In this document: one piece after another, positions 3,924 through 64,000 of the stretch
Layout: the number at the start of each line of letters is the position of its first letter
How positions within the stretch are numbered: the first letter of the stretch is position 1
Assembly (NCBI GenBank): GCA_965219625.1
Contig: OZ244782.1
Span: 484,712-548,711, forward strand
DNA length: 64,000 bases
Reading direction: 5' to 3'
Source: Candidatus Multivoraceae bacterium
Lineage (GTDB): Bacteria > Acidobacteriota > Thermoanaerobaculia > Multivoradales > Multivoraceae
Notes under the pieces: model-generated
The model's input: only the letters and a program-made list of their open reading frames with translations
What the model was told of the DNA's origin: nothing
Databases searched by the model: none
Program-made: the position numbers and the translations under genes

Positions 3924-3928
3924 GGCGG

Positions 3929-3937
3929 TGCTACAAT
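3929..3937 (+). promoter_or_regulatory. candidate extended -10 element (TGcTACAAT) upstream of the S1-domain gene
   Basis: TGnTACAAT at 3929-3937, ~60 nt upstream of the proposed ATG at 3997. No good -35. Confidence 0.25.
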
Positions 3938-3996
3938 CCGGGGCCGGCCCAGAGCCGACGTACCTCGGCGAACGGCACCGCTGCTCCTCCACGACG

Positions 3997-10101: not shown

Positions 10102-11426
10102 CGCGCCGCGGGCGGCCTCACGCCGGGCCTGGCGCGTTGTCTGTAGCGCTCGTACGAGCGGCTGTGGCGACTCGACAGGTCGACTTCCCTGCCGCGGATG
10201 ATCACGTGGCGAATCGCCGTGCGGACTTCGAGCGGATCGCCATCGGTGACGATCAGGTTCGCCCACTTGCCGACGCGAATCGAGCCCAAGCGATCCTCCA
10301 GGCCGAGAATCTCGGCGGCGCCGAGAGTCAGCGCGCGGAGCGCGGCGTCCGCATCAAGGCCATGGGCAACGGCTGTGGCCGCCTCGTACGGCAGGGCCCG
10401 GGCGTTCGACGCGCTGAACGTGCCGAACGCAATTCGTACGCCGACGCCTGCGAGCTCGCCGGGAGTGCGATACGGACGATCGTAGGGGTCGTCCTCATCG
10501 ACCGGCAACGCCTGGACCGGGCCCAGAATCACGGGAACGTCGTGCTCGGCAAGCAGCTCGGCCTCGGCCGCGGACTCGCGGCCCGATGCGATGACCAGGT
10601 CGAGGCCGTGCCGTTCGGCGAAAGCGACGGCGTCGCGAATCGCCCGGGCCCGATTCGCCAAGACCAGCAGCGGCAACTCGCCCCTCGCCACCCGCGCCAC
10701 TGCGTCCAGGGCGTGGTTCCTTTCCACCGCGCCGGAGTCGCCGGCGGCACGCCGCGCCTGATCGTACTGTCGGGCGGCATCCATCCAGTCGGCGATCTCG
10801 TCGACCGTGCGGTCGTAGTCCTTCTTCGCCTCGGAGAAACTCCTCTCGCGTACGCTGAACGTCGAGAAATCGAACTCGCGGGTCTCGAGGTTCGGCCATT
10901 CGAGCACCAAGCCGACGCTGGGCTCGACGGCCATCTCCTCCACCGTCCAGCCGTCGAGGACGATCGCCGACGCCTGGCCAGCCCACGGACCGCCGGAAGG
11001 GGCCGTCATGCTGTGCGTGATGCCGTTTGCTCGCGCAACTGGAATCATCTCGCTCGCCGGGTGAACTCCTTCGACCGCCAACAGGTGAGGAGTGTCGCCG
11101 ATTTCCGAGGTGTCGACCGTCGCCGAGATCGCGCTGATCTCGATGAGTCCGATGTTGCTCCAGGCATCGAACAGCCCGGGATACACGTGAAGACCCGTCG
11201 CATCGATCACCCGTGCGCCGACCGGCGCGGCCACGTCGGCGCCGGCGTCGACGATCAGACCGTCGCGCACGACGACGGTGCCGACAAAGTCCGACCCCGT
11301 CATCGGATGAACGGCGCCGCCCTCGATCGCCAGCGTCTGTCCGGCCAACGCCGTCGGCAGAAGCCAAGCCGCGAGCGCCATCCGTGAGACGATTCCCCGC
11401 ACGCTGACAATCCTCGGGCGACTCAT
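10098..11426 (-). CDS. secreted amidohydrolase-family protein
   Basis: 442 aa. Signal peptide. Metal-dependent amidohydrolase-fold motifs (a His-rich N-terminal region and a C-terminal VGKWANLIVTDGDPLE-type motif). The start overlaps the stop of the upstream amidohydrolase. Confidence 0.75.
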   Translation of the reverse strand: MSRPRIVSVRGIVSRMALAAWLLPTALAGQTLAIEGGAVHPMTGSDFVGTVVVRDGLIVDAGADVAAPVGARVIDATGLHVYPGLFDAWSNIGLIEISAISATVDTSEIGDTPHLLAVEGVHPASEMIPVARANGITHSMTAPSGGPWAGQASAIVLDGWTVEEMAVEPSVGLVLEWPNLETREFDFSTFSVRERSFSEAKKDYDRTVDEIADWMDAARQYDQARRAAGDSGAVERNHALDAVARVARGELPLLVLANRARAIRDAVAFAERHGLDLVIASGRESAAEAELLAEHDVPVILGPVQALPVDEDDPYDRPYRTPGELAGVGVRIAFGTFSASNARALPYEAATAVAHGLDADAALRALTLGAAEILGLEDRLGSIRVGKWANLIVTDGDPLEVRTAIRHVIIRGREVDLSSRHSRSYERYRQRARPGVRPPAAR

Positions 11427-42343: not shown

Positions 42344-42999
42344 CCGCCCGCCTCAGCGGGAGGCGACGGCGGCTTACTCCCGAGTCGGGATTCCGTACCC
42401 GCCCGGAGCCTTCTTAGATTCGCCCGGTGCTTCGAGATGACGAGCGTCGCGATGAGAAGCGTGCCGACGAACAGCGACGCCGCAGGCGCCGAACCGCCAC
42501 TCTCCCCCGACCCGCCGAGCCACCAGGAGAGGCCGACGATCCCCGGCAGGGACGCCGACGCCGCTACCGAACCCAGGGACACGTAGCGGGTCGCGACGAC
42601 GAGAGCGACGAACACGACGAGGGCGCCCAGCAACGCCCCGGGGACAAGCGGGATGAGCGCGCCGGCCGCGGTCGCCACCCCCTTCCCGCCGCGAAAACCC
42701 AGGAAGATCGGGAACACATGACCCGCCACCGCGGCCACCGCGGCCGCCGCGAGCCACCAGGGGCCGACCTCGAGCGCGAACGCGACGAAGAGAGCAGCCG
42801 TTCCCTTCGCCACGTCCAAGGCAAGCGCCAGCAGCGCCGCCCACTTCCCCGACGCTCGCATCACGTTCGTCGCTCCCGCGCTCCGACTGCCGATCGTCCG
42901 CAGGTCGATGCCGCGATGGACGCGAACGACGAGATAGCTCCAGGGCATCGAGCCGAGCAGGTACGCGGCAATCACCGCGATGAAGCCAGAAGCCGTCAC
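42340..42999 (-). CDS. plsY: glycerol-3-phosphate acyltransferase PlsY
   Basis: GSxNxGATN-like motif (GSRSAGATNVMRASGK) in a multi-TM protein. GTG start at 42999 chosen because it forms a GTGA overlap with the cinA stop. Confidence 0.85.
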   Translation of the reverse strand: MTASGFIAVIAAYLLGSMPWSYLVVRVHRGIDLRTIGSRSAGATNVMRASGKWAALLALALDVAKGTAALFVAFALEVGPWWLAAAAVAAVAGHVFPIFLGFRGGKGVATAAGALIPLVPGALLGALVVFVALVVATRYVSLGSVAASASLPGIVGLSWWLGGSGESGGSAPAASLFVGTLLIATLVISKHRANLRRLRAGTESRLGSKPPSPPAEAGG

Positions 43000-46499: not shown

Positions 46500-46629
46500 C
46501 CAAAGTCCCTCCCGAGCAGCCGGACCCTACCAGCATCCGCGGCAGGCGCCGCGCCCACAAGCTGGGAGGGACGATTCGGCGGCGATGCGACCTCCGGCTG
46601 GCCGGCGTCCGTCGCCGCTGACCGACCGA

Positions 46630-46654
46630 CCCGGCCCGGGAGTGCCGGGCCGGC
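46630..46654 (-). terminator. GC-rich hairpin 8 nt downstream of the giant-gene stop (candidate intrinsic terminator, no U-tract)
   Basis: CCCGGCCCGG-GAGTG-CCGGGCCGGC, a 9/10-bp stem immediately after the stop codon at 46663-46665. Confidence 0.3.
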
Positions 46655-46662
46655 GGTCTTCG

Positions 46663-49600
46663 TCAACGTTCGAGCCGCCCCCTCGCCGGCGGTTCGCTGC
46701 AGGCGGCGATTCGCGTGAGCTGGATCTCGTCGAACCACGCGTCGCCCTGGTTGTCCCCGTCCCGCGCGGCGCGGATCCGCACACCGCCGACGGAGGCGGG
46801 TATGCACTTCGTCACCGCCCGGCATTCCCACGCTCCGACGGAGCTGGCCACGACGTGCGCGTCCTCGAACGAAGCGTCACGGCCACGACCGTCGTCGAAG
46901 TCGACGAACACGTTGTCGCCCGCGTGCTCGCGCAGCACGCAGGCCGACAACTCGTAGACGCCGCCCTCAACCGGAATCCACTCCGCGGCGACCGCGGAAT
47001 CCGAACCCACGTCGCCGCCGGACACGGCGCCGCGAAGCAACAGGCCCCAGGAACCCGAGTCGGCCGAATCGGCCGAGGAACCCGGCCCGGCAGGCGAACG
47101 CGCAACGACCGCGTCTCCCGAATCCGACGTCCAACCTGGCGCCGCGGACATCCTCACCTCGCCGCCCTCCAACTCGGAAGCAACGTCGTCCAGGCCGCCG
47201 TTCACCACCGCCGTCTTCGGCCAGCCCGGAGAGAACGGATCGAACCACGGCGAACTCGGACGATAGGACGGCACAGGCACGAGCGACTCCTCAACCGCCC
47301 ACCACTCCGCAACTTCCCCCGGACCGGACGCCGAGCGACGCGAATACACCGCGCCACGGCCACGAGCCAGGTAGAACTCGTCGTACGCCTCCGCCCTGCT
47401 CGCATCCGCCCAGAAGCGGACCTCCAGCACGTCCTCGAACGTCAGACCGCCAACCACCGGCGCCGTGAACGACGCGTGGTGAGCGACGACCTCCAGGCGC
47501 ATCGTCGTAGCAAGAGCGCCCGCCTCGTTCCGCAGACGGTTCGACAGGTAACGACCGGTCACCGAACTCTCCAACACGTCGCCTACCGCCATGTAGCGGT
47601 TCATCCACCGGAACGGCCTGTCGAGCGACACGCTCAGGCGATCCGAAGACCCGCCCTCGACCGTGCCCCAGTAGTCCAAGCCGCCTTCCGTCTCCTCGAA
47701 CAGGTCGTACCGATCTCCCCCCGGAGTCCCCAAGAGCGCCATCGGACGGCCCCACAGCTCACCTCGCCAGAAGGACCGAAGCTCGTGGGAGTCCGCGGCA
47801 GGCCACAACCGACCGTCGACCAGGCGGCTCCGCACCCCCGAAGCGCTCCCGTGAGGCGACAGCCAGTACTCGAACATGTCGAACAGGTCGCCCGACGTCG
47901 TCGAGGGCTCGGACGAATCGGATGGCTCCACCAGCCCGGGATCCACTCCGCCGGCACGCGACGACGCGGCGGCCGAACCGACGGCCCCCTCGGACACCTC
48001 GATCGTGAACGTAAGCGTCGCCGAGTTCCCGTTCCCGTCCGACGCCGTGTACGTGTACGCCGTCTCCGCCTGAACCGCCGTCGGCGTACCGGACAACGTC
48101 CGCGTCGACGCGGAGAAACTCACGCCCGCCGGAAGGCCAGGCGTCACCGCGTAACTCAACGCGCCGCCCGTACCGGTCGCCGCCGGCAAGACGACGGACC
48201 CAACCGCCTCGTCCCTCACCCATGTCTGCGCCGCGATCGTCTCGTCCCCGAACGACGGGTCCTCCACCGCGATCGTCACGCTTCCCGTCGACTCGCCGAA
48301 CCACGCCACGCCGTCATGCACCATCTTCCACTCGAACGCATGCGGGCCTACCGTCGACGGCGCCGTGATCTCCAACGTGAAGTCCACCGTCTCTCCCGGC
48401 CCGACGCTTGCCGACACGTCCGCGTCGTCCGCGCTCGCCGGCAGCTCCACACGGTTCAAACCCCACGTCACGTTGTCTTGAGGGTTCTCTGAGCCCAGCC
48501 GGTACCCCTCGGCTTCCGTCCACGTCGTCGTCCCCACATTCTTCATCGTCACCGTCACCGACGCCGTCGAACCCGCCGCCATCTTCGAAGGCACACCGGA
48601 CGTCGACACGAAGGACGCATCGTCCACCAGGACCGCCTCTACCGTCATGCTGAACGTCAACGACGCCGAATCCCCGCCCGCGTCCGTCGCCGTGTACACG
48701 TACGCCGTCGTCGCCATCGCGTCCGTCGGCGTACCGGAGATCGTCCGCGTCGACGCGGAGAAACTCAAACCCGCCGGCAGTGCAGGAGAGAGCGAGTAGC
48801 TCAACGCACCGCCCCTACCGCTTGCCGCCGGCAAAACGACCGCCTCGATTGCCTCATCCTGCACATACGTCGCGTCCGCGATCGTCTGATCACCGAACGA
48901 CGGGTCCTCCACCTCGATCGTCACGCTCCCCGTCGGCTCGCCGAACCACGCCACGCCGTCATGCACCATCCGCCACGCAAACGCGCGCGCGCCGACCGTC
49001 GACGGCGCCGTGATCGTAAACGTAAAGTCCACCGTCGCGTTCGGCACAACGCTCACAGGACCGTCCGCGCTGACCGGCAGATGCGCCCGATTCGTACCCC
49101 ACGTCACGTTGTCCTGAGAATCCTGCGAGCCCAGGCGATACAACTTCGCCTCCGTCCACGTCGTCGTCCCCACATTCTTCATCGTCACCGTCACCGACGC
49201 CGTCGAACCCGCAACCATCTTCCCCGGCACACCCGACCAAGAGACGAACGATGCGTCGTCCACGGGAAACGCCGCCACCCTGATGCTGAACGTCAACGAC
49301 GTCGAATTCCCGGCCCCGTCCGTCGCCGTGTACGTGTACGCCGTCGCCGCTTGAACCACCGTCGGCGTCCCGGACAACGTCCGCGTCGACTCCGTAAACG
49401 TCAGCCCCGCTGGCAGCGGAGGAGTCACCGCGTAACTCAACGCACCGCCCGAACCGCTCGCCGCAGGCAACACGACCGGCTCGATCGGAACGTCCTTCAC
49501 ATACGTCTGGTCGATGATCGTCTGATCACCGAACGATGGGTCCTCCACCTCGATCATCACGCTGCCCGTCGACGAGCCGAACCACGCCACGCCGTCGCGA

Positions 49601-52600
49601 ACCATCCGCCACTCGAACGCATGCGGGCCTACCGTCGACGGCGCCGTGATCTCGAACCTGAACTCCACCGTACCCTTCGGAGGCACGATCACCGGAGCGT
49701 CAACGCTCCCCGGCAGATGCGCCCGATTCGTCCCCCACGTCGTGTTGTCTCGAACGCTCTCCGAACCCAGACGATAAAGCCCCGCCTCGGCCCACGTCGT
49801 CGTCCCCACATTCTCCATCGTCACCGTCACCGTCGCCGTCGAACCCACTGCCATCTTCGAAGGAACCCCGGACGTCGACACGAACGAAGCGTCGTCCACC
49901 GGAATCACCTCCACCTCGATCGCCCCCCCGCTCGGCGTCGACGAGCCGAACCATGCCACGCCGTCACGAACCATCTGCCACACGAAACCGTAGCTCCCAG
50001 CCGCCGACGGCGCCGTGATCGTGAACGTGAACTCCGCCGTCGTGTTCGGCGCCACCTCGCCAGGCAACGGCACCCGGTTCAAACCCCACGTCAGGTTGTC
50101 CTGATTGCCTTGCGAACCCAAGGAGTACCGATCCGACGACCGCCACGTCGTCGTACCCACATTCTCCATCCGCACCGTCACCGACGCCGTCGTACCCGCC
50201 GCCATCTTCGACGGAACCCCAGACGTCGACACGAACAACGCGTCGTCCGCCGACACCGACGCGACCCGAATGTGAAACGCAAGCGACGCCGAGTTCCCGG
50301 CCCCGTCCGTCGCCGTGTACGTGTACTCCGTCTCAGGCATCGTCGCCGTCGGCGTCCCCGACACCGTACGCGTCGACTCCGTGAAACTCACACCCGCCGG
50401 CAGGGCAGGAACGAGCGAGTAGCTCAACGCTCCGCCCGTACCGCTCGCCGCAGGCAACACGACCGGCTCGATCGGAACGTCCTTCACCCACGTCTGGTCG
50501 ACGATCGTCGCGTCGCCGAACGACGGGTCTTCCACCTCGATCGTCACGCTACCCGTCGACGAGCCGAACCACGCGACGCCGTCGCGGACCATCTGCCACT
50601 CGAAAGCTCGACTGCCCGTCGTCGACGGCGCCGTCATCGCCAACGTGAAGTCCACCGTCGTGTTCGGAGGCACGCTGACGGAACGGCCGGGAGCCTTCGG
50701 GTCCGCTGGCAGAGACACCCGATTCACACCCCAGGTCAGATTGTCCTGAACGTTCTGCGAACCCAGGCGATAGGAACCCGTCTCGCTCCACGTCGTCGTC
50801 CCCGCATTCTCCATCGTTACCGTCACCGCGAACGTCGAACCCGCAGCCACCTTCGAAGGTACCCCCGACCAAGACACGAACGAAGCGCCGTCACGAGACA
50901 CCGCCTCCACCGTGATGTGGAACGTCAACGACGCCGAATTCCCCTTCCCGTCCGTCGCCGTGTACGTGTACTCCGTCTTCGGCATCGTCGCCGAAGGAGT
51001 CCCCGACACCGTCCGCGTCGACTCCGTGAAACTCACTCCCGGCGGCAGAACAGGAACGAGCGAGTAGCTCAACGCTCCGCCCGTACCCCTCGCCGCAGGC
51101 AACACGACCGGCTCGATCGGAACGTCCTTCACCCACGTCTGGTCGACGATCGTCGCGTCACCGAACGACGGGTCCTCCACCGCGATCGTCACGCGACCCG
51201 TCGACAAGCCGAACCACGAAACGCCGTCGCGCACCATCTGCCACTCGAAACCGTAGCTACCCACGACCGCCGGCGCCGTGATACCGAACGTGAAGTCAAC
51301 CGTCGCACCCGGAGCCACCTCGCCGGGCAACGGCGCACGATTCCGACCCCACCTCACGTTGTCCTGCGGATCCTGCGAACCCAGACGGTACTCGCCCGAA
51401 GGCGTCCACGTCGTCGTCCCCTCGTTCTTCATCCGCACCGTCACCAAAGACGTCGTACCGGCAACCATCTTCCCAGGCACACCAGACCACGAAACGAACG
51501 ACGCATCGTCCTCCAACGACGCAACGACTTCGATCGTGAACGTGAGCGACGCGGACGAACCAACCCCGTCCGTCGCCGTGTACGTGTACTCCACCGCGTC
51601 CTGCAACTCCGTCGGCGTCCCTGACACCGTACGCGTCGACTCCGAGAAACTCACCCCCGTCGGCAACGCAGGCGTCAGCGAGTAGCTCAAAGCCCCGCCC
51701 GTGCCGCTCGCCGAAGGCAACACGACCGGCTCAAGGGGCACGTCCTTCACCAGCGTTTGATCCGGAATCGTCCAGTCGCCGAACGACGGGTCTTCCACCT
51801 CGATCGTCACGCTACCCGTCGACGAGCCGAACCACGCGACGCCGTCGCGGACCATCTGCCACTCGAAAGCTCGACTGCCCGTCGTCGACGGCGCCGTCAT
51901 CGCCAACGTGAAGTCCACCGTCGTGTTCGGAGGCACGCTGACGGAACGGCCGGGAGCCTTCGGGTCCGCTGGCAGAGACACCCGATTCACACCCCAGGTC
52001 AGATTGTCCTGAACGTTCTGCGAACCCAGGCGATAGGAACCCGTCTCGCTCCACGTCGTCGTCCCCGCATTCTCCATCGTCACCGTCACCGCGAACGTCG
52101 AACCCGCAGCCACCTTCGAAGGTACCCCCGACCAAGACACGAACGAAGCGCCGTCACGAGACACCGCCTCCACCGTGATGTGGAACGTCAACGACGCCGA
52201 ATTCCCGGCCCCGTCCGTCGCCGTGTACGTGTACTCCGTCTTCGGCATCGTCGCCGAAGGAGTCCCCGACACCGTCCGCGTCGACTCGGAGAAACTCACC
52301 CCCGTCGGCAGAGCAGGCGTCAGCGAATAGCCCAACGCTCCGCCCGTACCCCTCGCCGCAGGCAACACGACCGGCTCGATCGGAACGTCCTTCACCCACG
52401 TCTGGTCGACGATCGTCGCGTCACCGAACGACGGGTCCTCCACCGCGATCGTCACGCGACCCGTCGACAAGCCGAACCACGAAACGCCGTCGCGCACCAT
52501 CTGCCACTCGAAACCGTAGCTACCCACGACCGCCGGCGCCGTGATACCGAACGTGAAGTCAACCGTCGCACCCGGAGCCACCTCGCCGGGCAACGGCGCA

Positions 52601-55600
52601 CGATTCCGACCCCACCTCACGTTGTCCTGCGGATCCTGCGAACCCAGACGGTACTCGCCCGAAGGCGTCCACGTCGTCGTCCCCTCGTTCTTCATCCGCA
52701 CCGTCACCAAAGACGTCGTACCGGCAACCATCTTCCCAGGCACACCAGACCACGAAACGAACGACGCGTCGTCCACAACGAACGCCGCCACCTCAAGCGA
52801 AAACGGAAGCTCAGCCGCGTCACCGTCACGGTCCGTCGACATGTACGTGTACCCCGTCTCCGGCTGAACCTCCGTCGGCGTGCCAGAAAGCACCCGCGTC
52901 AAGCCGTCGAACTCCAAACCCGAAGGCAGCGACTCGACAACCTCGTACGTCAGCTCCCCGTTCCCGCCAACCGCCGCCGGCAGCGTCACCGGAACCATCG
53001 GCTCGTTCAGGGTGAGGAACTGCGGAACGATCGTCTGAACCCCGAACTCCGGCGCCGAGTCCTCCTCCACCGCGATCAACAACGGGAGCGAATCCTCGTC
53101 TCCGTCACGGTCCCCAACCGTGTACGCATACTCCGTCGCCGGCTGAACCGCCGTCGGCGTGCCGGAAAGCACTCGCGTCGCGGCCTCGAACTCCAAACCC
53201 GAAGGCAGCGACTCGACGATCGCGTACGTCAGCTCCCCGTTCCCGGCGACCGCGGACGGCAGCGTCACCGGCGACATCGGCTTGTTCAGGCTGAGGAACA
53301 GCGGATCGATCATCGTGACCTCGAACCCAGGAGCGGAGTCCCCTTCCACCTCGATGCTGACGACAAGCGACGCCTCGTCGCTGTCGCGGTCCGTCGCCGC
53401 GAACGTGTAGTCCGTCGCCGGCTGGGCCGTCGTCGGCAGGCCGGAGAGACCGCACGGCGGGGTCGGGTCGAGCGTCACACCCGCCGGCAACGCGGGAGAC
53501 TCCGGCGCCACGGAACATGTCACGTCCGCATTCCCGCCCGTCACGCCGAGGCTCAGGTCGACCGACGTCCTGCCTTCCGTCCACACGACCGGACTCTCGA
53601 CCGCGCCGAACGTCGGCGTCGTGTCCGGTTCCACCTCGATCGTCAACAGGAGCCAATCCTCGTCACCATCGCGGTCCGCAACCGTGTACGTGTAAGGCGT
53701 CTCCGGCTGCACCGCCGTCGGCGTGCCGGAAAGCGCCCGCGTCGTAGCCTCGAAGGCCAAACCCGAAGGCAGCGACTCGACGATCGCGTACGCCAGCTCC
53801 CCGTTCCCGGCGACGGCCGACGGCAGCGTCACCGGCGACATCGGCTTGTCCTGGCTCAGGATCAGCGGAGCGATCGACTCGTCTTCGAACCCAGGAGCGG
53901 AGTCCCCTTCCACCTCGATGCTGACGACAAGCGACGCCTCGTCGCCGTCGCGGTCCGTCGCCGCGAACGTGTAGTCCGTCGCCGGCTGGGCCGTCGTCGG
54001 CAGGCCGGAGAGACCGCACGGCGGGGTCGGGTCGAGCGTCACACCCGCCGGCAACGCGGGAGACTCCGGAGTCACGGAACATGTCACGTCCGCATTCCCG
54101 CCCGTCACGCCAAGGCTCAGGTCGACCGACGTCCTGCCTTCCGTCCACACGAGCGGACTCTCGACCGCGCCGAACGTCGGCGTCGTGTCCGGCTCCACCT
54201 CGATGCTGACGACGAGCGTCGCCGTGTCCCCGTCGTAGTCCGTCGCCGTGAACGTGTAGTCCTCCGCCCCTTGAACCGCCGTCGGCGTACCCGAGAGAAT
54301 GCACGGAGCGGTCGGCTCGAGCGTCACGCCCGAGGGCAGCGCGGGAGACTCCGACGTCAACGTGCATGTCGGCCCGAAATTGCCGTCCTCCAGGCCGAGA
54401 CTCACCTCGACCGGTCGGTTCTCCGTCCAGACCTGACTCCCGACCTGCCCGAACACCGGAGACGTGTCCGGCACGACGCCGATCGTGAACTCCCGCGAAG
54501 CAACGTCACCGTCGTCGTCCGTTGCCGTCCACGTGTACGTCCTCGGCGCCTGCGGCGCCGTCGGAACACCCGAAATCACCCGGCCCGACCGGGACATCCC
54601 AGCCGGCAGAACGGCGGAGAGACTGTACGTCAACGGCTGGTTCCCGCCCGTCGCCGCCGGCAGCGTCATCGAGCCCGGATAACCGACGATCCACGTCCGC
54701 GAGGGGAACCACTCCAGGACCGGCGTCTTGTCTTCCAAGACCGTCACGGTCACCGTCGCGGATTGGTAAACCTCGGGGCCGGCCAGCGTGATCAACCATA
54801 TGCCGGCCTCGTGGCCATATGCCGGCCTCGTGGCCGCTCACCGACACCTGCTGCGGCGAAGAGTAGTTCGATGCGTCGAAGTCCAGGCTGGAGGGACTCG
54901 CCGACACCTTCGAGATGTCCTCCTCGGTCACCGTCACCGTAGCGCCACCCGTGGACGGCGGCTCTGACAGGGACGCTCCGAAGGTCACCGACTCCCCCTC
55001 GATCACGGTCAAGTACAGAGGTTCCGGCGGACCGAGATCATCCAAACGAATCGTACCTAAATCAATGTACGGGCGCGGTTGGTCGACCACCGTTACGTCC
55101 ACCGTCACTGTCGAGTCGCACCCGCCGCCGATTGAAGTCAGGGTGACCGAGGTCTGCTCGTCGTTCCGGTCGTCGTCCCACACACCTTCCAGCGTAATCT
55201 GCTGCGCGGCCGCACTCGTGAATTGGAGGGGCGAATCGGAGGCGTTCTTCAGCTTGACCGCGCCCAGATCGTTGATTACGACGGGCACATTTACCCGGCC
55301 TGTCGGCGTCCTGGACAGCGAGACGGTCAAGTCGGCTTCGCCGCCTTCGACCAAGACCAGCGGATTCGGCGACACGACCAGACTGCACGGCGGCCCGACC
55401 GTGATGTCGAACGTCACGACGCCCGCGTCGGTCGGGGCCGTGTTGCCGTCCGCGTCCGTCGCCGTGAACGTGTACGCCGCCGTGTCCTCATCCGCAGACG
55501 GCGTCCCCGACACCGTGCATGACGAAGCGTCCAGCGACACCCCTGCCGGCAATGCCGGCGCGTTCGAGCAGGTCACATCTCCATTGCCGCCCGTCACCCC

Positions 55601-56272
55601 GAGGTCCAGATCGACAGCCACACCCGTCGTCCAGTCCTGATCCGCGATGCTCCCGAACGTCGGCACCGTGTCCGTACCCACCCAGATCGTCCGGGCCGAC
55701 GTCGAGTCGCCGAACGGCGTCGAGCCGACGAAACCGGAAACCGCGGGCGAGGACGCAACAACAGGTCCCGGATTCGGGCCCGGGTTCGTCTCGGTGATCC
55801 TGCGCATGCGAAACTGAAAGCTGTAGCTCCCAGCGGTCGAAGGCGCCGTGATCGTGAACGTGAAGTCGTGGACGGCGTCCGGCGCCACGGTGCCGAAGAC
55901 CGGCACGCCGGCCACTGTCGACCCGCTGTCGAGACCCCAGGTATCGCCGACCCAAAACAACGTAAAGAACGTCACTGTGTTCGGGAGGAACCGAGTCGAC
56001 CAGCTCTGCGTCCCCGTGTTCTTCATGCGGACCGTCACTGTCCTCGTCTCGCCGGGCGACATGAACTCCGACGCGGACGGCAAGCCGGTCCAGGACACGA
56101 ACTCCGCATCGTCGGCGCCCATCGCTGGCGACACCATGAAGCCGAGCGCCAGACAAGCCGCCGCGACCGCCACAAGCCGAGTCCCACCGTGGTGCTGCAT
56201 CGTTCTGCTCCCGCTCATCATCCGCCTCCTCGCGTCTGATTCACTACCGCTCATCCGAACCGTCCTCTTCAA
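46663..56272 (-). CDS. giant secreted cell-surface repeat protein (~3,200 aa): signal peptide, FW domains alternating with CADG/He_PIG Ig-like domains, CBM4/9-like C-terminus; frameshifted here by a 19-bp tandem duplication
   Basis: ORFs 54506-56272 and 46663-54795 fuse in frame (…SVSGHEAGIW|LITLAGPEVYQ…) when one copy of the 19-bp repeat at 54797-54834 is removed. N-terminal signal peptide (MKRTVRMSGSES…LALGFMVSPAMGA). At least 20 repeats of the LPxGxxFxxxTRxxSGTPTxxQxxTxYTYTATDxxGxxAS type (dystroglycan-type cadherin-like). Repeats with four or five conserved Trp residues (ASFVSWSGVP…NxGTTTW…YRLGSQ…WG…FEWQMVRDGVxWFG) match the FW/NBR1-like domain. The C-terminus ends …GDAWFDEIQL, like CBM4/9 modules. 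Confidence 0.8.
50512..53037. repeat. two tandem near-identical 1,263-bp (421-aa) units inside the giant gene; each unit encodes FW-CADG-FW-CADG
   Basis: Shadow ORFs 50549-50872/51812-52135, 50891-51136/52154-52399 and 51296-51490/52559-52753 are pairwise near-identical with a constant 1,263-bp offset. The encoded protein shows two ~421-aa blocks that are almost identical. Unit boundaries are approximate. Confidence 0.7.
54797..54834. repeat. perfect 19-bp tandem duplication (CATATGCCGGCCTCGTGGC x2) inside the giant gene, causing a +19 frameshift
   Basis: Units at 54797-54815 and 54816-54834 are identical. Deleting one unit restores a single reading frame across 46663-56272. Confidence 0.9.
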
Positions 56273-58320
56273 CTACGCCCAGCCCGCCAGCCGGCGCACC
56301 GACTTCGCCCGACCGCGCCTCGCACACCTCCGAAAACGCGGTCACGTCGACCACCGCGGCAGACGGTTTGCCGGCCTCCCGTCTGTATCTCTTGGACTCA
56401 TACGTCTCCAGGTCCAAGACACCGAGAGAGAGCCGCAGGTCCGTCGCCGAGGCCGCGAGCACCCAATGGTGACCGTTCACCGCACAGCCGTCCAGCACCT
56501 TGACGAGCACCTCCCAATTCTCCGGGCCGAAGAAGTAGACGATGCCCGACTCGTCCGTGCCTACAGAGGCTACCCTCGCGCCTATACGCTCCCCCGTCTC
56601 TGACCAGTAGTCCACCCAGACCGAGTAACGACGATTCCGGAGACACAGCCTCGTTTCCGTCGGCACGCACGGGCCGACCGCCTCCTCCGCCACAACAGAA
56701 ACCGGCGCCTCGGCCGCCGCCGACCAGCCGCTCCCATCCGACAACGAAGCAGCAGCGGCGGCAGACGCCGCCCCAGCCTCCGAGCCGTCGCAGGCCCTCG
56801 GAAACGCGTTCACGTCGACGATCGCCGGCGCCGGAGACCCCGGCTCGTTCTCGTACGCGCGGAACGCACCCGTCGCCGTGTCCGTTACCCGAATCCGGTA
56901 CCCGAGGTCCGTCGTCGACGCCCCGAGCACCCACACCCGGCCGTTCACCGAACAACCGTCGAGCACCTTGATCAAGACCTCCCAGTTCTCAGGGTCAAAG
57001 AAAGACAGCAACCCCGAGTCGTTCGTACCCACGGGAACGACCGCCGCCCGCCCCGAATCCCCGTCCAGGCTCCACCACTCCGCCGTCACCTCGAAACGGG
57101 AATCCCGAAGGCAACGCGTCTCCCCGTCCGCAGCGCACGTCCCCGCCGGAGACGCCGCCTCGACGAACACCGTCCGCGAAGCGGATGACGAATCCGAACC
57201 GTCGCTAAACGTCAGAACCACTTCATAGAACCCCGGGGAGGACCAGGAGTGGACCGGCGACTCCAGCCGAGACGTCGTCCCATCGCCGAAGTCCCACGTC
57301 CGCTCCGTCGCTGAAGCGTCGCTCGTATCGACGAACGTGACCGGTTCGCCCGTCACCGTGCGGCAGAGCTCCGCCCCCGCACAAGGCGCACCGAAGTCGA
57401 ACGAAGGCGCAGGAATCGCAACCGTACGCGCACGCACCGTCGCCGGCGGACCGGCGCCGCGCCCCGTCCACGCCCGCACCTGGAACGCGTACTCCCTACC
57501 CGGGTCGAGCCCCGTCGCCCGGTAGCTCCCGGATTCGTTCGGCACCGTCTTCCAGCGGTCCTCCGCAACGTCGAACGGAAGCTCCCGCGCCGGCTTCCAA
57601 CGAACCTCCTGCCGGCCTGCCGTAATCGGCGATTCCACTTCCCATGTCAGATCGACCGCCACGCTCAAGGCCGACGCCGAAAGACCAACGATCTTCGGCG
57701 GCGGAGGGCGCCAGGAACTCCGAGAGTAGCCGCGATCGTTGAACGCGAACACGCGGAACATCTTCCCCGCAGGCACGACGGCCGTCTCCACGTCCGCGGA
57801 CACGACCAGCGCCCTCCTCCAGATTTCGGCGCCATTGCTGACCTGGACTTCAAAGCCCGTCTCGTCGTCCGAGTTGTCGCGCCAGCGAAGCCGCACTGTG
57901 TCACCGAGCCGCTCTTCCGTAACGCCCGACGGCGCCTCAGGCCCGAAACCCCGCGAACCCAGCGTCAGCCGGCCGTATGAAGCTGAACTGCTCTTGCCGG
58001 GGCGATGGGCGACGGCGGTGAACACATAGCGGCCGCCGCGCGCCAAGTTCTCGAAGTCCACCCGACCGCGACCCTCGGCGACCTGAACCGAATCGCCCCA
58101 CCCCTCCAAACTCGCGAAAACCGAGTGAGACTCGGCCTCTGCGTCGGGCGCCCAGGAAACCCGTGCCGTCGTCGGACCGGCGGCGGTCACCGCAAAGCCC
58201 GCGACGCCGAGCGCGGCGTCTTCATCGCCCGAAGGCAACGTCACGACATCGCTGCTCTCGGATTCGCCCCACTTGTTCCACGCGACCACCTGCACGCCGT
58301 ACTCCGCGTTCGCGTCACGC
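56135..58320. repeat. segmental duplication, copy A (3' ~2.2 kb of the metalloprotease gene plus the first 138 nt of the giant gene)
   Basis: Near-identical to 60440-62587 at a 4,305-bp offset (identical shadow ORFs 56398-56955 / 60703-61260). Identity is 100% over the 3' ~1.3 kb and decays toward the 5' side. Confidence 0.85.
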
Positions 58321-60134
58321 CCAGGCACGAAGCCGAAGAACCGAAAGGACTCGCTGTTCGCCGGCGCCTCTCTCCTGAAGACCACCTCGCCGGCCCGCAG
58401 GAGGCGCACATCGAAGCCCGTTTCATTGTCCGAATTGTCCCGCCAACGGACATCCAAGCTGTTCGGCGGGAACGTCACCGAAACGTCCGAAGGCGCCGCA
58501 ATCGGATCGCCAGGCAACCAGATTCCAGCCCAGTCGCTCCACAGCGACCGAGCCGAGCCGACCAACGAACGCACCCGGAAGTGGTAGATGCCAGGAAGGT
58601 CTCCTCCCCCGAAAGACCACTCCGCCTCCGTCCGCCCCTCAGCGCGCCGGATGTCCTGCCACCCCGTCAGCCTGTTCACGCGCTCCACCTCGTAGCCGTC
58701 CCCGTCCGCGGCGCTGTCTTCCCAGCTCAAGCGAGCCGACGAACCGTCCCGTTGCAACCGAACTCCGGTCGGCTGAGCCGGGATGTCCGCCGGCGGCAAG
58801 TAATCGCTGTACCGCACGCCGACGTGGACCGTCTCCCGCAGCAAACGCTCGTTGTCCCGCTCGCCTTCGATCCCCAACACCGCCCCGTACAAACGAAGCC
58901 GCGGCGTCGAGTAGAACGGCTCGGTCTGGCCGCTCAGGCTCATCGCCGTACCCAAGGCCGGCATCGCGTCGTAATCCACATGGCCATATGCATACGGCCA
59001 CCGGCTCGGCGCCCGCCAACCTGGCGGTTGGTGGCCAGCGCCCAGACCGTGGCCCACCTCGTGGACGAACGTCGCAGCGTAGTCACCGCCGCACGCCGAC
59101 GGGTGGTTCGACGTATAGCCGCGGGCATAGGGAGAGAAGCTCTCCGCCGTAAAGAAGGGGCGCAACCATCCGTGTAAACCGCAGCCCGCCACCCCCGGCA
59201 GCGACCCACTCTCCCCTGTAAACAGGTGCACCAGGTCCGCCCGATGCTCGTGACGTAACCGCTGGAGCTCCCCGTCCCAGACGATCAGGTCGATCAGGCC
59301 GATTCCCGCGTCCAACTCCGGCCTGCTCAGATCCCGCCCCGCACGGTCCAGCGTCGACGAAGCCTCGACGACGTGCACGATGCGGGGCGTCACCTCAAGG
59401 CCGTTGTTCCGGAACACGAGCGATAAGTAATCGGCCGCGTGCTGGATCGCAATCTCCGCTCCGCCGATGGGCGCCCAGTACTTCGCAGCCTCCTTCGTGT
59501 ACGCGACGAGGATGTCCAGGTAATCGTGATCGCGGTGGCTCTGATGGCTCGCCGTCCCGCGCGGCGCATCCGCGCCGCGGCCAGCCGCATTCGCACGGCT
59601 CTCCGCCCCGACGCCCGCCGCGGCCTCCTCCTCTTGCTCCACACCGCACCACGGCTCCCCTTGACCCGGCCCGGCCCCGCCCAAGGGCGACATCCCGCCA
59701 AGGCCGTCCGAAGCCGAATGGATCCGATACGCACCGCCCCCAGGAGCCCCGAAACGCCCGATCAGCCGCCCTTCGTGAATCGTCAGGACGACCGTGTCGT
59801 ACCCGGCCTCGCGGTTCCCCCCGAACCAGACCCCATCCCCGTTTCCCCGGTCCTCGAAGGCGGAACGTTCGGCGTAGATCACATCACCGTCCGGCGTCGG
59901 CGCCTCGAGAACCAGGGGAGCGCTACGAAGAAGATCCAAGTCCGCCTGAATCGCAGTCACCGGCGCCGGACCCATCGATCCCCCGCCCTCCACGGACGAC
60001 GCTTCCGCCACGGAAGGCAAGAGCGTCAGCAAACGCTGAGCCTCCACCGGCAACGCCGCCAGCCAGACGAACACCACGGCGAACGGCAGAGCCGCGAGCC
60101 GGCGAACAGCGGGCAGGGGGCGCGGATTGGACAT
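56244..60134 (-). CDS. secreted reprolysin-like zinc metalloprotease with Fn3 repeats, a PKD domain and twinned C-terminal domains of unknown family (paralog A)
   Basis: Signal peptide (MSNPRPLPAVRRLAALPFAVVFVWLAALPVEAQ; ATG at 60134 preferred over the GTG at 60158). HEVGHGLGAGHQ with the Met-turn AMSLSG. Fn3 repeats. PKD (WDFGDGTTS…GFYEVVLTFSDG). Two C-terminal ~115-aa repeats (CLRDSRFEV…SFFDPENWEVLIKVLDGCSVNGRVW…; CLRNRRYSV…YFFGPENWEVLVKVLDGCAVNGHHW…). The stop overlaps the giant-gene start by 29 nt. Confidence 0.8.
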   Translation of the reverse strand: MSNPRPLPAVRRLAALPFAVVFVWLAALPVEAQRLLTLLPSVAEASSVEGGGSMGPAPVTAIQADLDLLRSAPLVLEAPTPDGDVIYAERSAFEDRGNGDGVWFGGNREAGYDTVVLTIHEGRLIGRFGAPGGGAYRIHSASDGLGGMSPLGGAGPGQGEPWCGVEQEEEAAAGVGAESRANAAGRGADAPRGTASHQSHRDHDYLDILVAYTKEAAKYWAPIGGAEIAIQHAADYLSLVFRNNGLEVTPRIVHVVEASSTLDRAGRDLSRPELDAGIGLIDLIVWDGELQRLRHEHRADLVHLFTGESGSLPGVAGCGLHGWLRPFFTAESFSPYARGYTSNHPSACGGDYAATFVHEVGHGLGAGHQPPGWRAPSRWPYAYGHVDYDAMPALGTAMSLSGQTEPFYSTPRLRLYGAVLGIEGERDNERLLRETVHVGVRYSDYLPPADIPAQPTGVRLQRDGSSARLSWEDSAADGDGYEVERVNRLTGWQDIRRAEGRTEAEWSFGGGDLPGIYHFRVRSLVGSARSLWSDWAGIWLPGDPIAAPSDVSVTFPPNSLDVRWRDNSDNETGFDVRLLRAGEVVFRREAPANSESFRFFGFVPGRDANAEYGVQVVAWNKWGESESSDVVTLPSGDEDAALGVAGFAVTAAGPTTARVSWAPDAEAESHSVFASLEGWGDSVQVAEGRGRVDFENLARGGRYVFTAVAHRPGKSSSASYGRLTLGSRGFGPEAPSGVTEERLGDTVRLRWRDNSDDETGFEVQVSNGAEIWRRALVVSADVETAVVPAGKMFRVFAFNDRGYSRSSWRPPPPKIVGLSASALSVAVDLTWEVESPITAGRQEVRWKPARELPFDVAEDRWKTVPNESGSYRATGLDPGREYAFQVRAWTGRGAGPPATVRARTVAIPAPSFDFGAPCAGAELCRTVTGEPVTFVDTSDASATERTWDFGDGTTSRLESPVHSWSSPGFYEVVLTFSDGSDSSSASRTVFVEAASPAGTCAADGETRCLRDSRFEVTAEWWSLDGDSGRAAVVPVGTNDSGLLSFFDPENWEVLIKVLDGCSVNGRVWVLGASTTDLGYRIRVTDTATGAFRAYENEPGSPAPAIVDVNAFPRACDGSEAGAASAAAAASLSDGSGWSAAAEAPVSVVAEEAVGPCVPTETRLCLRNRRYSVWVDYWSETGERIGARVASVGTDESGIVYFFGPENWEVLVKVLDGCAVNGHHWVLAASATDLRLSLGVLDLETYESKRYRREAGKPSAAVVDVTAFSEVCEARSGEVGAPAGGLGVVEEDGSDER

Positions 60135-60301
60135 TTCGACTGAAAACCACCTTAGCACCCCTGCACGCCTTTCCCCACAGGAGCTGCGAGAAACCGCCGA
60201 CAGCCATGCCTGTCAAGCTCGTGGCGACGGCGCTGCCCGTTACGGAAGCGCTCGCAAACCTCCCGGCCCGCCACCAGGGGCACCAGCCAGTTGCCGGCGT
60301 T

Positions 60302-60577
60302 CTATTCCCTCTCCCACGTGGTCGTTCCCGTGTTCGACGCGACGACCGTCACCGTCGCCGACCCGCCGGGAGCGATGAAGTCCGGAAGAACGGGTTCCGT
60401 CACGATCGCCGCATTGTCTGCGCCGCGGACGGCCGTCGACATGAAGCCGAGCGCCAGACAAGCCGCCGCGACCGCCACAAGCCGAGTCCCACCGTGGTGC
60501 TGCATCGTTCTGCTCCCGCTCATCATCCGCCTCCTCGCGTCTGATTCACTACCGCTCATCCGAACCGTCCTCTTCAA
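60302..60577 (-). pseudogene. truncated remnant of the giant gene's 5' end (signal peptide + partial FW domain, 91 aa) created by the segmental duplication
   Basis: The first 46 codons are identical to the giant gene start (MKRTVRMSGSES…LALGFM). It then diverges (…ASNTGTTTWERE*) and stops. It overlaps the upstream paralog B stop by 29 nt, like the parental arrangement. Confidence 0.6.
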
Positions 60578-62587
60578 CTACGCCCAGCCCGCCAGCCGGC
60601 GCACCGACTTCGCCCGACCGCGCCTCGCACACCTCCGAAAACGCGGTCACGTCGACCACCGCGGCAGACGGTTTGCCGGCCTCCCGTCTGTATCTCTTGG
60701 ACTCATACGTCTCCAGGTCCAAGACACCGAGAGAGAGCCGCAGGTCCGTCGCCGAGGCCGCGAGCACCCAATGGTGACCGTTCACCGCACAGCCGTCCAG
60801 CACCTTGACGAGCACCTCCCAATTCTCCGGGCCGAAGAAGTAGACGATGCCCGACTCGTCCGTGCCTACAGAGGCTACCCTCGCGCCTATACGCTCCCCC
60901 GTCTCTGACCAGTAGTCCACCCAGACCGAGTAACGACGATTCCGGAGACACAGCCTCGTTTCCGTCGGCACGCACGGGCCGACCGCCTCCTCCGCCACAA
61001 CAGAAACCGGCGCCTCGGCCGCCGCCGACCAGCCGCTCCCATCCGACAACGAAGCAGCAGCGGCGGCAGACGCCGCCCCAGCCTCCGAGCCGTCGCAGGC
61101 CCTCGGAAACGCGTTCACGTCGACGATCGCCGGCGCCGGAGACCCCGGCTCGTTCTCGTACGCGCGGAACGCACCCGTCGCCGTGTCCGTTACCCGAATC
61201 CGGTACCCGAGGTCCGTCGTCGACGCCCCGAGCACCCACACCCGGCCGTTCACCGAACAACCGTCGAGCACCTTGATCAAGACTTCCCAGTTCTCAGGGC
61301 CGAAGAAAGACAGCAGGCCGGAATCGTTCGTACCCACGGGAACGACCGCCGCCCGCCCCGAATCCCCGTCCAGGCTCCACCACTCCGCCGTCACCTCGAA
61401 CCGGGAGTCCCGAAGGCAACGCGTCTCCCCGTCCGCAGCGCACGTCCCCGCCGGAGACGCCGCCTCGACGAACACCGTCCGCGAAGCGGATGACGAACCC
61501 GAACCGTCGCTCACCGTCAAGACGACCTCGTAGAAACCCGGCGTAGACCACGAGTGGACCGGAGACCGCAAACGTGACGTCGTCCCGTCGCCGAAGTCCC
61601 ACGTCCACTCCCTCGCCGAGGAATCGCTCTCGTCGACGAATGTCACCGGCTCGCCCGTCACCGTGCGGCAGAGCTCGGAACCCGCGCACGGCGCCCCGAA
61701 GTCGAACGACGCCGCGGGAATCGAGGCTGTCCGCGCACGGACCGTCACCGGCGGGCCGGCGCCCCGCAACGTCCACGCCCGCACCTGGAACGCGTACTCC
61801 CTACCCGGGTCGAGCCCCGTCGCCCGATAGCTCCCGGATTTGTTCGGCACCGTCTTCCAGCGGTCCTCCGCAACGTCGAACGGAAGCTCCCGCGCCGGCT
61901 TCCAACGAACCTCCTGCCGGCCTGCCGTAATCAGCGATTCCACTTCCCATGTCAGATCGACCGCCACGCTCAAGGCCGACGCCGAAAGACCAACGATCTT
62001 CGGCGGCGGAGGACGCCAGGAACTCCGAGAGTAGCCGCGATCGTTGAACGCGAAGACGCGGAACATCTTCCCCGCAGGCACGACGGCCGTCTCCACGTCC
62101 GCGGACACGACCAGCGCCCTCCTCCAGATTTCGGCGCCATTGCTGACCTGGACTTCAAAGCCCGTCTCGTCGTCCGAGTTGTCGCGCCAGCGAAGCCGCA
62201 CTGTGTCCCCGAGCCGCTCTACCGTAACGCCCGACGGCGCCTCAGGCCCGAAACCCCGCGAACCCAGCGTCAGCCGGCTGTATGAGGCTAAACTACTGCT
62301 GCCGGAGCGGTGGGCGGAAATCGAAAACACATAGCGGCCTCCGCGCGCCAGGTTCTCGAAGTCCACCCGACCGCGACCCTCGCCAACCCGAACCGAATCG
62401 GAGGACCACCCGTCCAAACTCGGCCGAACCCAGTGATAGTCGGCCTCTGCGTCAGGCACCCAGGAAACCCGCGCCGTCGTCGGACCGACGGCCGTCACCG
62501 TCAAGCTCGCGACGCCGGGCAAGACCTCCGCATCGCCCGTAGGCAACGTCACGACATCGCTGCTCTTGGATTCGCCCCACTTGTTCC
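60440..62587. repeat. segmental duplication, copy B
   Basis: See copy A. Copy B continues for ~48 bp after the IS insertion (63929-63976), then diverges from copy A. Confidence 0.85.
60549..62587 (-). pseudogene. reprolysin-like metalloprotease paralog B, 3' portion; interrupted by an ISL3 insertion
   Basis: C-terminal 430 aa are 100% identical to paralog A. The PKD and Fn3 regions are progressively divergent. The reading frame runs into the IS at 62588. Homologous sequence resumes after the IS at 63929 and continues past the window end. Confidence 0.75.
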
Positions 62588-63927
62588 GGGTCTTCAGGCT
62601 GTTGTGTGGGGAGCGCGCCACGCGGTTAGTCGCCGGTGACCCATAGACTGGCGGGATGAAGAGTGCGAGGACGTTCGAGAGGCTGTTGGGGATCAAGCCG
62701 CCTTGGCGGGTGCGGGAGGTGGTGCTCCGTATGGACGAGCCGCATCCGCGACGTCGCGGCGCGGTGGTTGGCGGCACGGTGGAGATTCACGTCGAGCATC
62801 GTGGGGAGACCCGCTGCCCCGAGTGCGGCGAGCGGTGTCCGGGCTACGACAGCAGACACCGCAGGTGGCGGCATTTGGACACGATGCAGCACCAGACGCG
62901 TGTCCACGCGGAGGTGCCTCGGGTGCGCTGCGTCGAGCATGGCGTACTCCAGTTGAAGGTGCCTTGGGCGGACGAGGGTTCTCGTTTCACGGCGCTGTTC
63001 GAGGCAGAGGCCATCGGCTGGCTTCGTGACGCGAGCGTTCAGGCGGTGGCGCGACGCATGGGTCTGAGCTGGGATCAGGCGGCGGGGATTCAGCGCCGGG
63101 CAGTGGATCGCGGCCTTTCGCGGCGCCGGTTGCGGCCGCCGCGGCTGCTGGGCGTGGACGAGACGGCGTTTCGGAGGCGACACGAGTACGTGACGGTGGT
63201 CAACGACCTGGAGCGAGGCGTGGTGGCCCATGTGGCCGACGGTCGCGGCCGGTCGGCCATCGACGGCTACTTCGAGGGTCTGGGCGAGACGACCTGCGCG
63301 GGCATCGAGCAGGTGGCGATGGACATGTGGCCGGCGTACATCTCTTCGGTGAAGGCGTACACGAACGCGGTGATCGTGCACGACCGGTTCCACATCGTCG
63401 CGCACCTGAACCACGCCGTGGACCTGGTTCGGCGCGCCGAGCAGCGGGAGTTGCTTGAGGCAGGCGATCCGCGTCTGAAGCGAAGCCGCTACCTGTGGTT
63501 GATGGGGAAGGGCCGCATGAACCGCTCGCAGCGGCGACGTTTCGCTGCTCTTCGCACGAGTCACCTTCGCGTGGCTCGGGCCTGGGCGATCAAGGAGATG
63601 GCGCGGGACTCGTGGGGCTATGCGAGCCGCGGTTGGGCAGAGCGGCGCTGGAAGCGCTGGTACGGCTGGGCGGTCCGCAGCCGTTTGGCGCCGATCAAGC
63701 AAGTGGCCAAGATGATCAGGGATCACTGGGAGGCCGTCATCAACGCCGCCGTGTCCAGCATCTCCAGCGCCAGCGCCGAGGGCATCAACGCGAGGATCCA
63801 GGAGATCAAGCGAAGAGCGCACGGCTAGCGAAACCGAGAGCACTTCCGCCTCGCCATCTACTTCCATCTCGGCGGACTCGATTTGACTCCCGATTCACTG
63901 CAAGCCCACACACAACCCTGAAGCGCC
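62588..63927 (+). mobile_element. ISL3-family insertion sequence (1,340 bp) with imperfect ~24-bp terminal inverted repeats and an 8-bp target-site duplication CTTGTTCC
   Basis: IRL is GGGTCTTCAGGCTGTTGTGTGGGG (62588-62611). The reverse complement of IRR is GGCGCTTCAGGGTTGTGTGTGGGC (63904-63927). Direct repeats CTTGTTCC sit at 62580-62587 and 63928-63935. Flanking sequence is contiguous with paralog A's homologous site. Confidence 0.85.
62656..63828 (+). CDS. ISL3-family transposase
   Basis: 390 aa. N-terminal zinc-finger (CPECGERCPGYDSRHRRWRHLD) and the LGVDETAFRRRH…DMWPAY…HDRFHIVAHLNHAVD core, which are typical of ISL3 transposases. Confidence 0.9.
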   Translation: MKSARTFERLLGIKPPWRVREVVLRMDEPHPRRRGAVVGGTVEIHVEHRGETRCPECGERCPGYDSRHRRWRHLDTMQHQTRVHAEVPRVRCVEHGVLQLKVPWADEGSRFTALFEAEAIGWLRDASVQAVARRMGLSWDQAAGIQRRAVDRGLSRRRLRPPRLLGVDETAFRRRHEYVTVVNDLERGVVAHVADGRGRSAIDGYFEGLGETTCAGIEQVAMDMWPAYISSVKAYTNAVIVHDRFHIVAHLNHAVDLVRRAEQRELLEAGDPRLKRSRYLWLMGKGRMNRSQRRRFAALRTSHLRVARAWAIKEMARDSWGYASRGWAERRWKRWYGWAVRSRLAPIKQVAKMIRDHWEAVINAAVSSISSASAEGINARIQEIKRRAHG

Positions 63928-64000
63928 CTTGTTCCACGCGACCACCTGCACGCCGTACTCCGCGTTCGCGTCACGCTCGCGCGCGGAGACGTCTAACCGA

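Follow-up and report, generated by a model that had tools for sequence, protein, structure and literature searches.

We examined a 19-bp tandem duplication in a 64,000-nucleotide stretch of the chromosome of a Candidatus Multivoraceae bacterium (contig OZ244782.1, positions 484,712 to 548,711; this whole stretch is called the window below, and all coordinates are those of the window unless stated otherwise). The evidence supports the view that two adjacent open reading frames (ORFs) on the reverse strand, 54506 to 56272 and 46663 to 54795, are one gene that the duplication has split by shifting its reading frame. Taken together, the findings are probably best explained by a real and recent duplication that converted a 9.6-kb gene for a giant exported repeat protein into a truncating allele or early pseudogene.

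The duplicated unit reads CATATGCCGGCCTCGTGGC on the forward strand and occurs at 54797 to 54815 (copy 1) and at 54816 to 54834 (copy 2), within a gene that is read from the reverse strand. The copies are identical and abut without a spacer, just as the first-pass annotation of this DNA had described them. Tandem Repeats Finder reported a period of 19, 2.1 copies, 100% matches, and zero indels for 54796 to 54835; the whole periodic tract thus measures 40 nt (2 × 19 nt + 2 nt), and a 2-nt microhomology, CC on the forward strand and GG on the coding strand, bounds the unit. The unit is a complex sequence, neither homopolymer nor microsatellite, in agreement with the earlier remark that it was not an artefactual homopolymer. 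Its length is not divisible by 3, and it lies inside coding sequence. No short-unit repeat tract was found at the site, and no further match to the 19-mer was present in the window with up to 3 mismatches allowed. None of 100 shuffles contained two or more matches of the 19-mer, and a perfect tandem duplication with a unit of at least 14 nt appeared in none of 300 64-kb windows simulated under a first-order Markov model; the actual window has two, with units of 15 nt and 19 nt. Because neither the shuffles nor the simulations ever reproduced the 19-bp duplication, it is not due to chance, and a chance repeat was ruled out as its origin. Slippage driven by a hairpin was also rejected, as no notable hairpin was predicted on either strand around the duplication (folding no better than that of shuffles, with z of about 0.1 to 0.4).

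As encoded, the 5' ORF runs on the reverse strand from an ATG at 56218 to 54506 and specifies 570 aa; it is open from a TTG at 56272, counted from which the ORF has 588 codons. The ATG is the likely start, being accompanied by GGAGG upstream, and the called 570-aa protein P0001 uses the same start. The 3' ORF (46663 to 54795, reverse strand) consists of 2,710 codons without an internal stop, and the in-frame stop that precedes it, at 54838 to 54840, lies 3 nt upstream of the duplication. Translation of the upstream ORF gives ...QQVSVSGHEAGIW, followed by PRGRHMVDHAG... until a TGA at 54508 to 54506, and the downstream ORF translated from 54834 gives ATRPAYGHEAGIWLITLAGPEVYQ.... In the native upstream frame copy 2 encodes part of ...GHEAGIW, and copy 1 is then read out of frame as PRGRHM; in the frame of the downstream ORF it is copy 1 that forms part of GHEAGIW. 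When one copy was deleted in silico, the two ORFs fused into a single 9,591-nt ORF of 3,196 codons from the TTG, with a terminal stop only. The fused junction, ...SVSGHEAGIW-LITLAGPEVYQ..., is exactly that given in the first-pass annotation, which had allowed that the junction might have been mistranslated; on retranslation the frames do fuse, and the single-gene reading stands. The frameshift is the sole lesion across the 9.6-kb gene. Two sizes in the earlier description needed adjustment. One ORF of about 9.6 kb is indeed restored, and in place of about 3,197 aa its length is 3,196 codons counted from the TTG and 3,178 aa if translation begins at the ATG at 56218. The product as written is indeed truncated, at 570 aa in place of about 480 aa, of which 468 residues are native and 102 form an out-of-frame tail.

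Codon usage gave the same answer as the deletion. In this genome, which is 67% GC, the GC content at third codon positions is 0.87 downstream of the duplication when the frame of the downstream ORF is used; when the upstream frame is instead continued past the duplication, the same 0.87 maximum is found at first codon positions. The codon-position signal switches frame exactly at the duplication, and the true reading frame therefore shifts there. The first in-frame start of the downstream ORF is a TTG in the middle of a domain, with no clear ribosome-binding site, and a signal peptide is lacking from this ORF.

The duplication falls within a repeat domain of about 100 aa, here called D2 (54721 to 55024, reverse strand), that spans the junction. 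The 5' ORF encodes, in order, a signal peptide, an FW/N_BRCA1_IG-like domain, a He_PIG domain, a first repeat domain (D1), the truncated D2, and the 102 aberrant residues. The coding sequence for the last two conserved strands of D2 (IWLITLAG and ATVTVTVLED) lies beyond the duplication and is read only with one copy removed. Read in this way, D2 can be aligned over its full length with D1, the paralogous domain before it, through the junction with the homologous domain of a Nitrospirales metagenome-assembled genome (MAG) (L003), and with repeat units of the giant proteins P0267, P0274, and P0259. In a multiple alignment of the domain, the fused reading supplies the conserved domain end TVTLxxSG...Y...TVTVTVxDDxTP (here IWLITLAG...ATVTVTVLEDKTP), and the encoded frameshifted tail matches nothing in that alignment. 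In an exhaustive HMMER search, 1,975 representative proteins had the domain at E ≤ 0.001, many of them giants of 2,000 to 7,900 aa with 10 to 50 copies, and several of the alignments cover residues 4 to 216 of the query and so cross the junction at 193/194. Since the fused reading completes a domain known from about 2,000 proteins, the domain homology indicates that the single-copy state is ancestral. The domain has the consensus ...TFTxxNWxxAQTVTVxxxDDxDxxDExxTVTLxASGxxY...VTVxDDxT (window 54721 to 55366 and homologues P0252 to P0400), and the junction domains had no significant match in Pfam, NCBIfam, or a PDB sequence search.

The two ORFs also share their recognizable domain families, N_BRCA1_IG/FW and He_PIG. 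In the upstream ORF, He_PIG scored 37.6 bits against a Pfam gathering cutoff of 24 bits, and N_BRCA1_IG scored 27.4 bits, just below its cutoff of 28 bits; in the downstream ORF the scores were 387.6 bits over 14 stretches for He_PIG and 195.4 bits over 8 stretches for N_BRCA1_IG (FW). Internal repeats further downstream in the gene take the form of modules of about 640 nt at 60 to 98% identity. A Sec signal peptide, MSGSRTMQHHGGTRLVAVAAACLALGFMVSPAMG before ADD, is predicted at 56117 to 56218 (reverse strand) from its sequence pattern only. The C-terminal part of about 440 aa (46663 to 47994) had no significant match in Pfam, NCBIfam, or a PDB sequence search, and the last 505 aa contain no recognizable anchor or sorting motif. 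Structure models built from single sequences were unusable, with pLDDT values of 39.7 for the junction domains and 35.8 for the C-terminal 445 aa. The intact gene would most likely encode a 3,178-aa Sec-exported protein of immunoglobulin-like (Ig) repeats, in which the two domains of about 100 aa are followed by many He_PIG and FW + He_PIG modules before the C-terminal part. The proposal in the first-pass annotation of one giant secreted Ig-repeat gene, now split, is thus supported by the fused frames, the shift in codon-position GC, the common domain families, and the restored domain; its term "surface protein" goes further than the evidence, which is a Sec-type signal peptide pattern with no recognizable anchor.

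The truncated protein is present on two contigs. One is the 3,701,229-bp contig from which the window was taken (NCBI and ENA), and the other is a 313-kb contig of ENA assembly ERZ26695579, ctg119234_4.30x_l, which has a coverage of 4.3x and carries both copies of the 19-mer. Over the approximately 39.5 kb compared, the second contig equals the window except for one 1-nt indel, two single-nucleotide polymorphisms (SNPs) in an insertion sequence (IS), and a differing flank past the IS. That two non-identical assemblies of one clone carry the same duplication makes a random assembly artefact unlikely. In addition, the site falls in 5' sequence that is unique within the gene and clear of its long internal repeats, and any single read would be longer than the tract. 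The earlier alternatives had been a real duplication or an assembly error; with the second assembly, a real mutation is favored from these consensus-level sequences, and the underlying reads presumably carry the duplication too.

The indel between the two contigs is an extra G in the 4.3x contig at window position 48288 (17931 in L001), which changes GTCGACGGG to GTCGGACGGG and breaks the downstream ORF into pieces of 2,238 and 359 aa. It is either a consensus error, which we take to be the probable case, or a further disabling mutation carried by a subpopulation. The SNPs in the IS copy are at 63371 and 63828. Past the IS, the 4.3x contig (L001, 1 to 2290) enters an HNH/DUF222 gene and not the interrupted paralogue found in the window (63929 to 64000), a difference that reflects either an exchange between IS copies by recombination or a chimera made by the low-coverage assembly. 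A related genome represented by a 4x contig and a 396x circular contig (L017/L018, 13668 to 16142) had 262 mismatches and 37 small indels between the two versions. All of these differences are inside 2.5 kb of PSD/PSCyt-family genes, with identity elsewhere over 18 kb, and may come from paralogue mixing, a divergent allele, or local noise; with differences confined to 2.5 kb, the pair was uninformative as a gauge of the error rate of low-coverage contigs.

The 19-bp duplication most likely arose via replication slippage or via microhomology-mediated template misalignment at the 2-nt CC/GG. The insertion amounts to 6 codons plus 1 nt, such that translation would leave the native frame within the second of the domains of about 100 aa, and the ribosome would then pass through 102 aberrant codons and end at the TGA at 54508 to 54506. 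The cell would make solely a secreted fragment of 570 aa, the last domain of which is broken. The 2,710 codons that follow would in effect be silent because they have neither a signal peptide nor an evident independent start. The sampled population would then carry a null or truncating allele, and the gene would be a pseudogene at an early stage.

The age of the event can be bounded from the downstream ORF. Stop-creating changes make up 3.0% of all possible substitutions in its 2,710 codons. With a modest share of indels added, a break in the ORF is expected after about 5 to 15 neutral mutations, equivalent to 0.07 to 0.2% divergence, and the intactness of the ORF limits neutral divergence since the event to roughly ≤0.2 to 0.5% (95% bound). 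Because the 8.1-kb downstream ORF is still open, the event appears to be recent. Such integrity has one of three explanations: a very young frameshift, a locus maintained in a revertible condition, or a frameshift that does not exist in the genome. We infer the slippage mechanism, the loss of function, and the recency alike.

The gene lies in a region with further signs of decay. Its upstream neighbor on the same strand (56244 to 60158) encodes a 1,304-aa reprolysin-like metalloprotease with fn3 and PKD domains. Beyond this is a 91-codon ORF at 60302 to 60577 (reverse strand), a truncated relic of an FW-domain paralogue. The first 46 codons of the relic and the intergenic DNA upstream of it (60440 to 60720) are 100% identical over 281 nt to 56135 to 56415, the start of the giant gene; past the 46 codons, the relic diverges into an FW-like start and then stops. 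It looks like a truncated paralogue remnant whose 5' end was recently gene-converted or duplicated. A paralogue of the metalloprotease gene follows, of which a 3' part remains at 60549 to 62587, and the two share 94.5% identity over 2,150 nt (56135 to 58279 versus 60440 to 62587). This paralogue is interrupted by a 1,340-bp ISL3-family IS on the forward strand (62588 to 63927), which has imperfect inverted repeats at 62592 to 62610 and 63905 to 63923 and an 8-bp target duplication, CTTGTTCC, at 62580 to 62587 and 63928 to 63935. Homology of the paralogue to 58280 onwards resumes directly past the element.

On the other side of the giant gene are a TPR gene and trpD. The uncultured organism is a diderm, probably of the Acidobacteriota: homologues of the TPR neighbor are named Holophagales or Acidobacteria, and in relatives BamA and LpxD are near. 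In two relatives, a 3.87-Mb circular MAG (L017) and a contig (L020), tatA is directly upstream of the TPR-trpD pair and there is no giant gene. Here the position of tatA is occupied by a 17-kb block that includes the IS as well as the giant gene and the protease genes, with the junction side at 46500 to 46662. Given that tatA adjoins TPR-trpD in these relatives, the block from 46663 to 63935 is specific to this lineage, as an insertion or a rearrangement. The presence of three lesions in one accessory block favors ongoing gene loss over a dedicated switch.

Searches for an intact version of the gene were made at several levels. A protein search with the N-terminal 670 aa of the fused protein returned the truncated protein itself and otherwise matches of ≤48% identity, at the level of domains and not orthologous; among the matches listed, all were ≤1,172 aa and even the 2,238- and 2,603-aa proteins of this locus were missing, and giant orthologues were thus perhaps invisible to that search. 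A collection of 15 billion proteins has no entry for the exact 3,178-aa fused product, and a look-up of the 2,603-aa downstream protein gave no contig on record. A scan of contigs from representative genomes, a collection that does not include the source genome, gave distant domain matches only, and a protein-guided scan of JGI metagenomes gave matches only at the level of He_PIG. Scanning the JGI metagenomes for the exact pattern, with either one or two copies of the 19-mer permitted, gave 0 matches, although consensus sequences cannot reveal minor alleles and the absence of a single-copy allele is weak negative evidence. The route through synteny, via glnA and the adjoining TPR gene, led to relatives without the entire block, and no ancestral junction DNA was obtained there.

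Several of these points weigh against a recent inactivating duplication. The duplication is known from assembly consensus, and the two assemblies may share a sample or read set. No orthologue from a close relative was found in the collections searched, and the single-copy ancestral DNA was deduced rather than observed. The 468-residue native N-terminal part could keep some activity. Finally, an open downstream ORF is equally expected if the duplication is a revertible OFF state.

The last point leads to the alternative that survives best, which we nevertheless consider unlikely, namely, reversible ON/OFF expression in which the duplication is the OFF state, RecA-independent slippage restores the ON state, and new duplications regenerate the OFF state. 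Slippage of this kind between tandem direct repeats, with loss of one copy, is well established, and perfect tandem repeats are intrinsically unstable. At this locus precise loss of one copy would restore the exact frame, the downstream 8.1 kb is wholly open, and the target, a secreted and adhesin-like repeat protein, belongs to a class typical of phase variation. There are also precedents. According to PMC11163986, where it cites Waite et al. 2001, pneumococcal cap3A is turned off by duplication and on by reversion; the discussion section of a study of Ralstonia (bioRxiv 10.1101/2023.04.27.538605) describes tandem duplications in phcA that revert in planta; and in Mycobacterium tuberculosis the copy number of tandem repeats varies within populations at 10^-2 to 10^-3 per chromosome (PMC12817950). 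However, the locus has two copies of a 19-nt unit only and not a multicopy tract of short repeats, and the two available assemblies both show two copies. The 15-billion-protein collection does not contain the fused protein, no allele was seen in the JGI metagenomes, and no related lineage has the gene, such that no conservation of a switch is demonstrable. The neighboring genes decay in a manner that looks irreversible, and every tandem duplication can revert, which means that the capacity to revert is not by itself a sign of an evolved switch.

The fullest form of this idea would have the sequenced cells represent the OFF state of a duplication/deletion switch for the 3,178-aa Ig-repeat protein, perhaps in a host-associated bacterium, with ON cells in the minority. 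We regard it as improbable. If true, it would extend switching of the cap3A type to giant adhesin-like genes of environmental or symbiotic bacteria, and if deep reads had both alleles, they would reveal duplication-based phase variation outside pathogens. The first-pass annotation had left the choice between pseudogene and switch open; the pseudogene is now favored, and nothing found supports the switch, given the two-copy state throughout, the absence of the fused protein, and the decay of the block.

An assembly artefact, in which the genome truly has a single copy and the second was added during contig stitching or polishing, is improbable on the present evidence. It would fit the otherwise intact condition of the gene, where the frameshift is the sole lesion in 9.6 kb. 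The form of the contig names (ctgN_coverage_l/c) suggests a common long-read metagenome pipeline, in which a systematic error could recur, and the low-coverage contig has at least one probable consensus error, the 1-nt G insertion at 48288. Against this stand the identical 19-bp duplication in two non-identical assemblies, one of them at a mere 4.3x, the complexity of the unit together with a tract below read size, and the location of the site in the unique N-terminal part, away from the internal repeats that could confuse an assembler.

It is very improbable that the split arrangement is functional, either through +1 ribosomal frameshifting between 54837 and 54509 or as two separate products. 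The two frames overlap by 330 nt, the downstream one being open from 54837 and the upstream one extending to 54506, and a +1 shift at any point within this overlap would bring them back together. However, the rescued protein would keep the disrupted D2, and the break is inside a domain and not between domains. The downstream ORF is without a signal peptide, and its first start, the mid-domain TTG, has no clear ribosome-binding site. Programmed +1 frameshifting like that of prfB was rejected because the upstream-frame stop has the context CGA CGG TGA CGT, with no prfB-like CUU-UGA, and no unusual structure is predicted in the region. Least credible of all is that the two copies are the target-site duplication left by an excised mobile element, which would suit the active mobile elements nearby (the ISL3 copy with its 8-bp target duplication is 8 kb away) and which we rejected, as the copies abut exactly with no residual element sequence between them, the local IS yields target duplications of 8 bp and not 19 bp, 19 bp is an atypical length, and excision of a bacterial IS rarely leaves an intact target duplication.

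A recent truncating duplication places this gene among well-known phenomena, since frameshifting tandem duplications that give rise to split genes or young pseudogenes are a familiar type of mutation. Like ordinary frameshift pseudogenes, it has a single indel whose length is not a multiple of 3, two adjacent ORFs on the same strand with the same families, and decayed genes and an IS nearby; unlike them, it has an unusually clean perfect duplication of 19 bp and an 8.1-kb remainder that is fully open. The closest parallel among phase-variable genes is Streptococcus pneumoniae cap3A, together with cap8E and tts, where, in the accounts of Waite et al. 2001 and 2003 given by PMC11163986 and PMC13410964, the capsule is turned off by duplication. 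Those accounts share with the present case a perfect in-ORF duplication of tens of bases, an extracellular product, and restoration of the wild type by removal of one copy. They differ in that both states and the reversion were seen experimentally in the pneumococcus, with many independent duplications recurring, whereas here the duplicated state only is found, in one clone, and from sequence alone. In simple-sequence-repeat contingency loci, such as those with tetranucleotides in Haemophilus or homopolymers in Neisseria, copy number also sets the frame of a gene for an exported protein; those loci have many copies of units of 1 to 9 nt and copy number polymorphism, compared to two 19-nt copies and no observed polymorphism here. 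The protein itself resembles the giant Ig-repeat exoproteins and adhesins (He_PIG, PF05345; FW/N_BRCA1_IG, PF16158) in having a signal peptide and a modular, internally repetitive build. It is unlike them in its lack of a recognized anchor and in the 440-aa C terminus and two domains of about 100 aa that have no Pfam or NCBIfam model.

For annotation, both ORFs should be recorded as one frameshifted gene and not as two proteins. The locus would offer a snapshot of the very recent inactivation of a costly 9.6-kb gene for a secreted protein and an example of the turnover of accessory genes, in a lineage-specific region with many insertion sequences and internal duplications.

The remainder of the window provided several minor observations. 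Genes for an S1 protein, glnA, guaA, and trpD mark it as chromosomal, and no tRNA genes or Rfam families were found in it. The second perfect tandem duplication, at 4236 to 4268, has a 15-bp unit (CGACGACGCGGATGC, 2.2 copies), is in frame, and yields DDADADDADA in the acidic N-terminal extension of an S1-domain protein (ORF 3928 to 5580); a 9-bp tandem duplication is also present at 42725. Reprolysin and fn3 domains also occur in the product of a third gene (1,266 aa, with no PKD match), 50 kb away at 6466 to 10266, and an expanded family of secreted proteases thus adjoins the giant gene.

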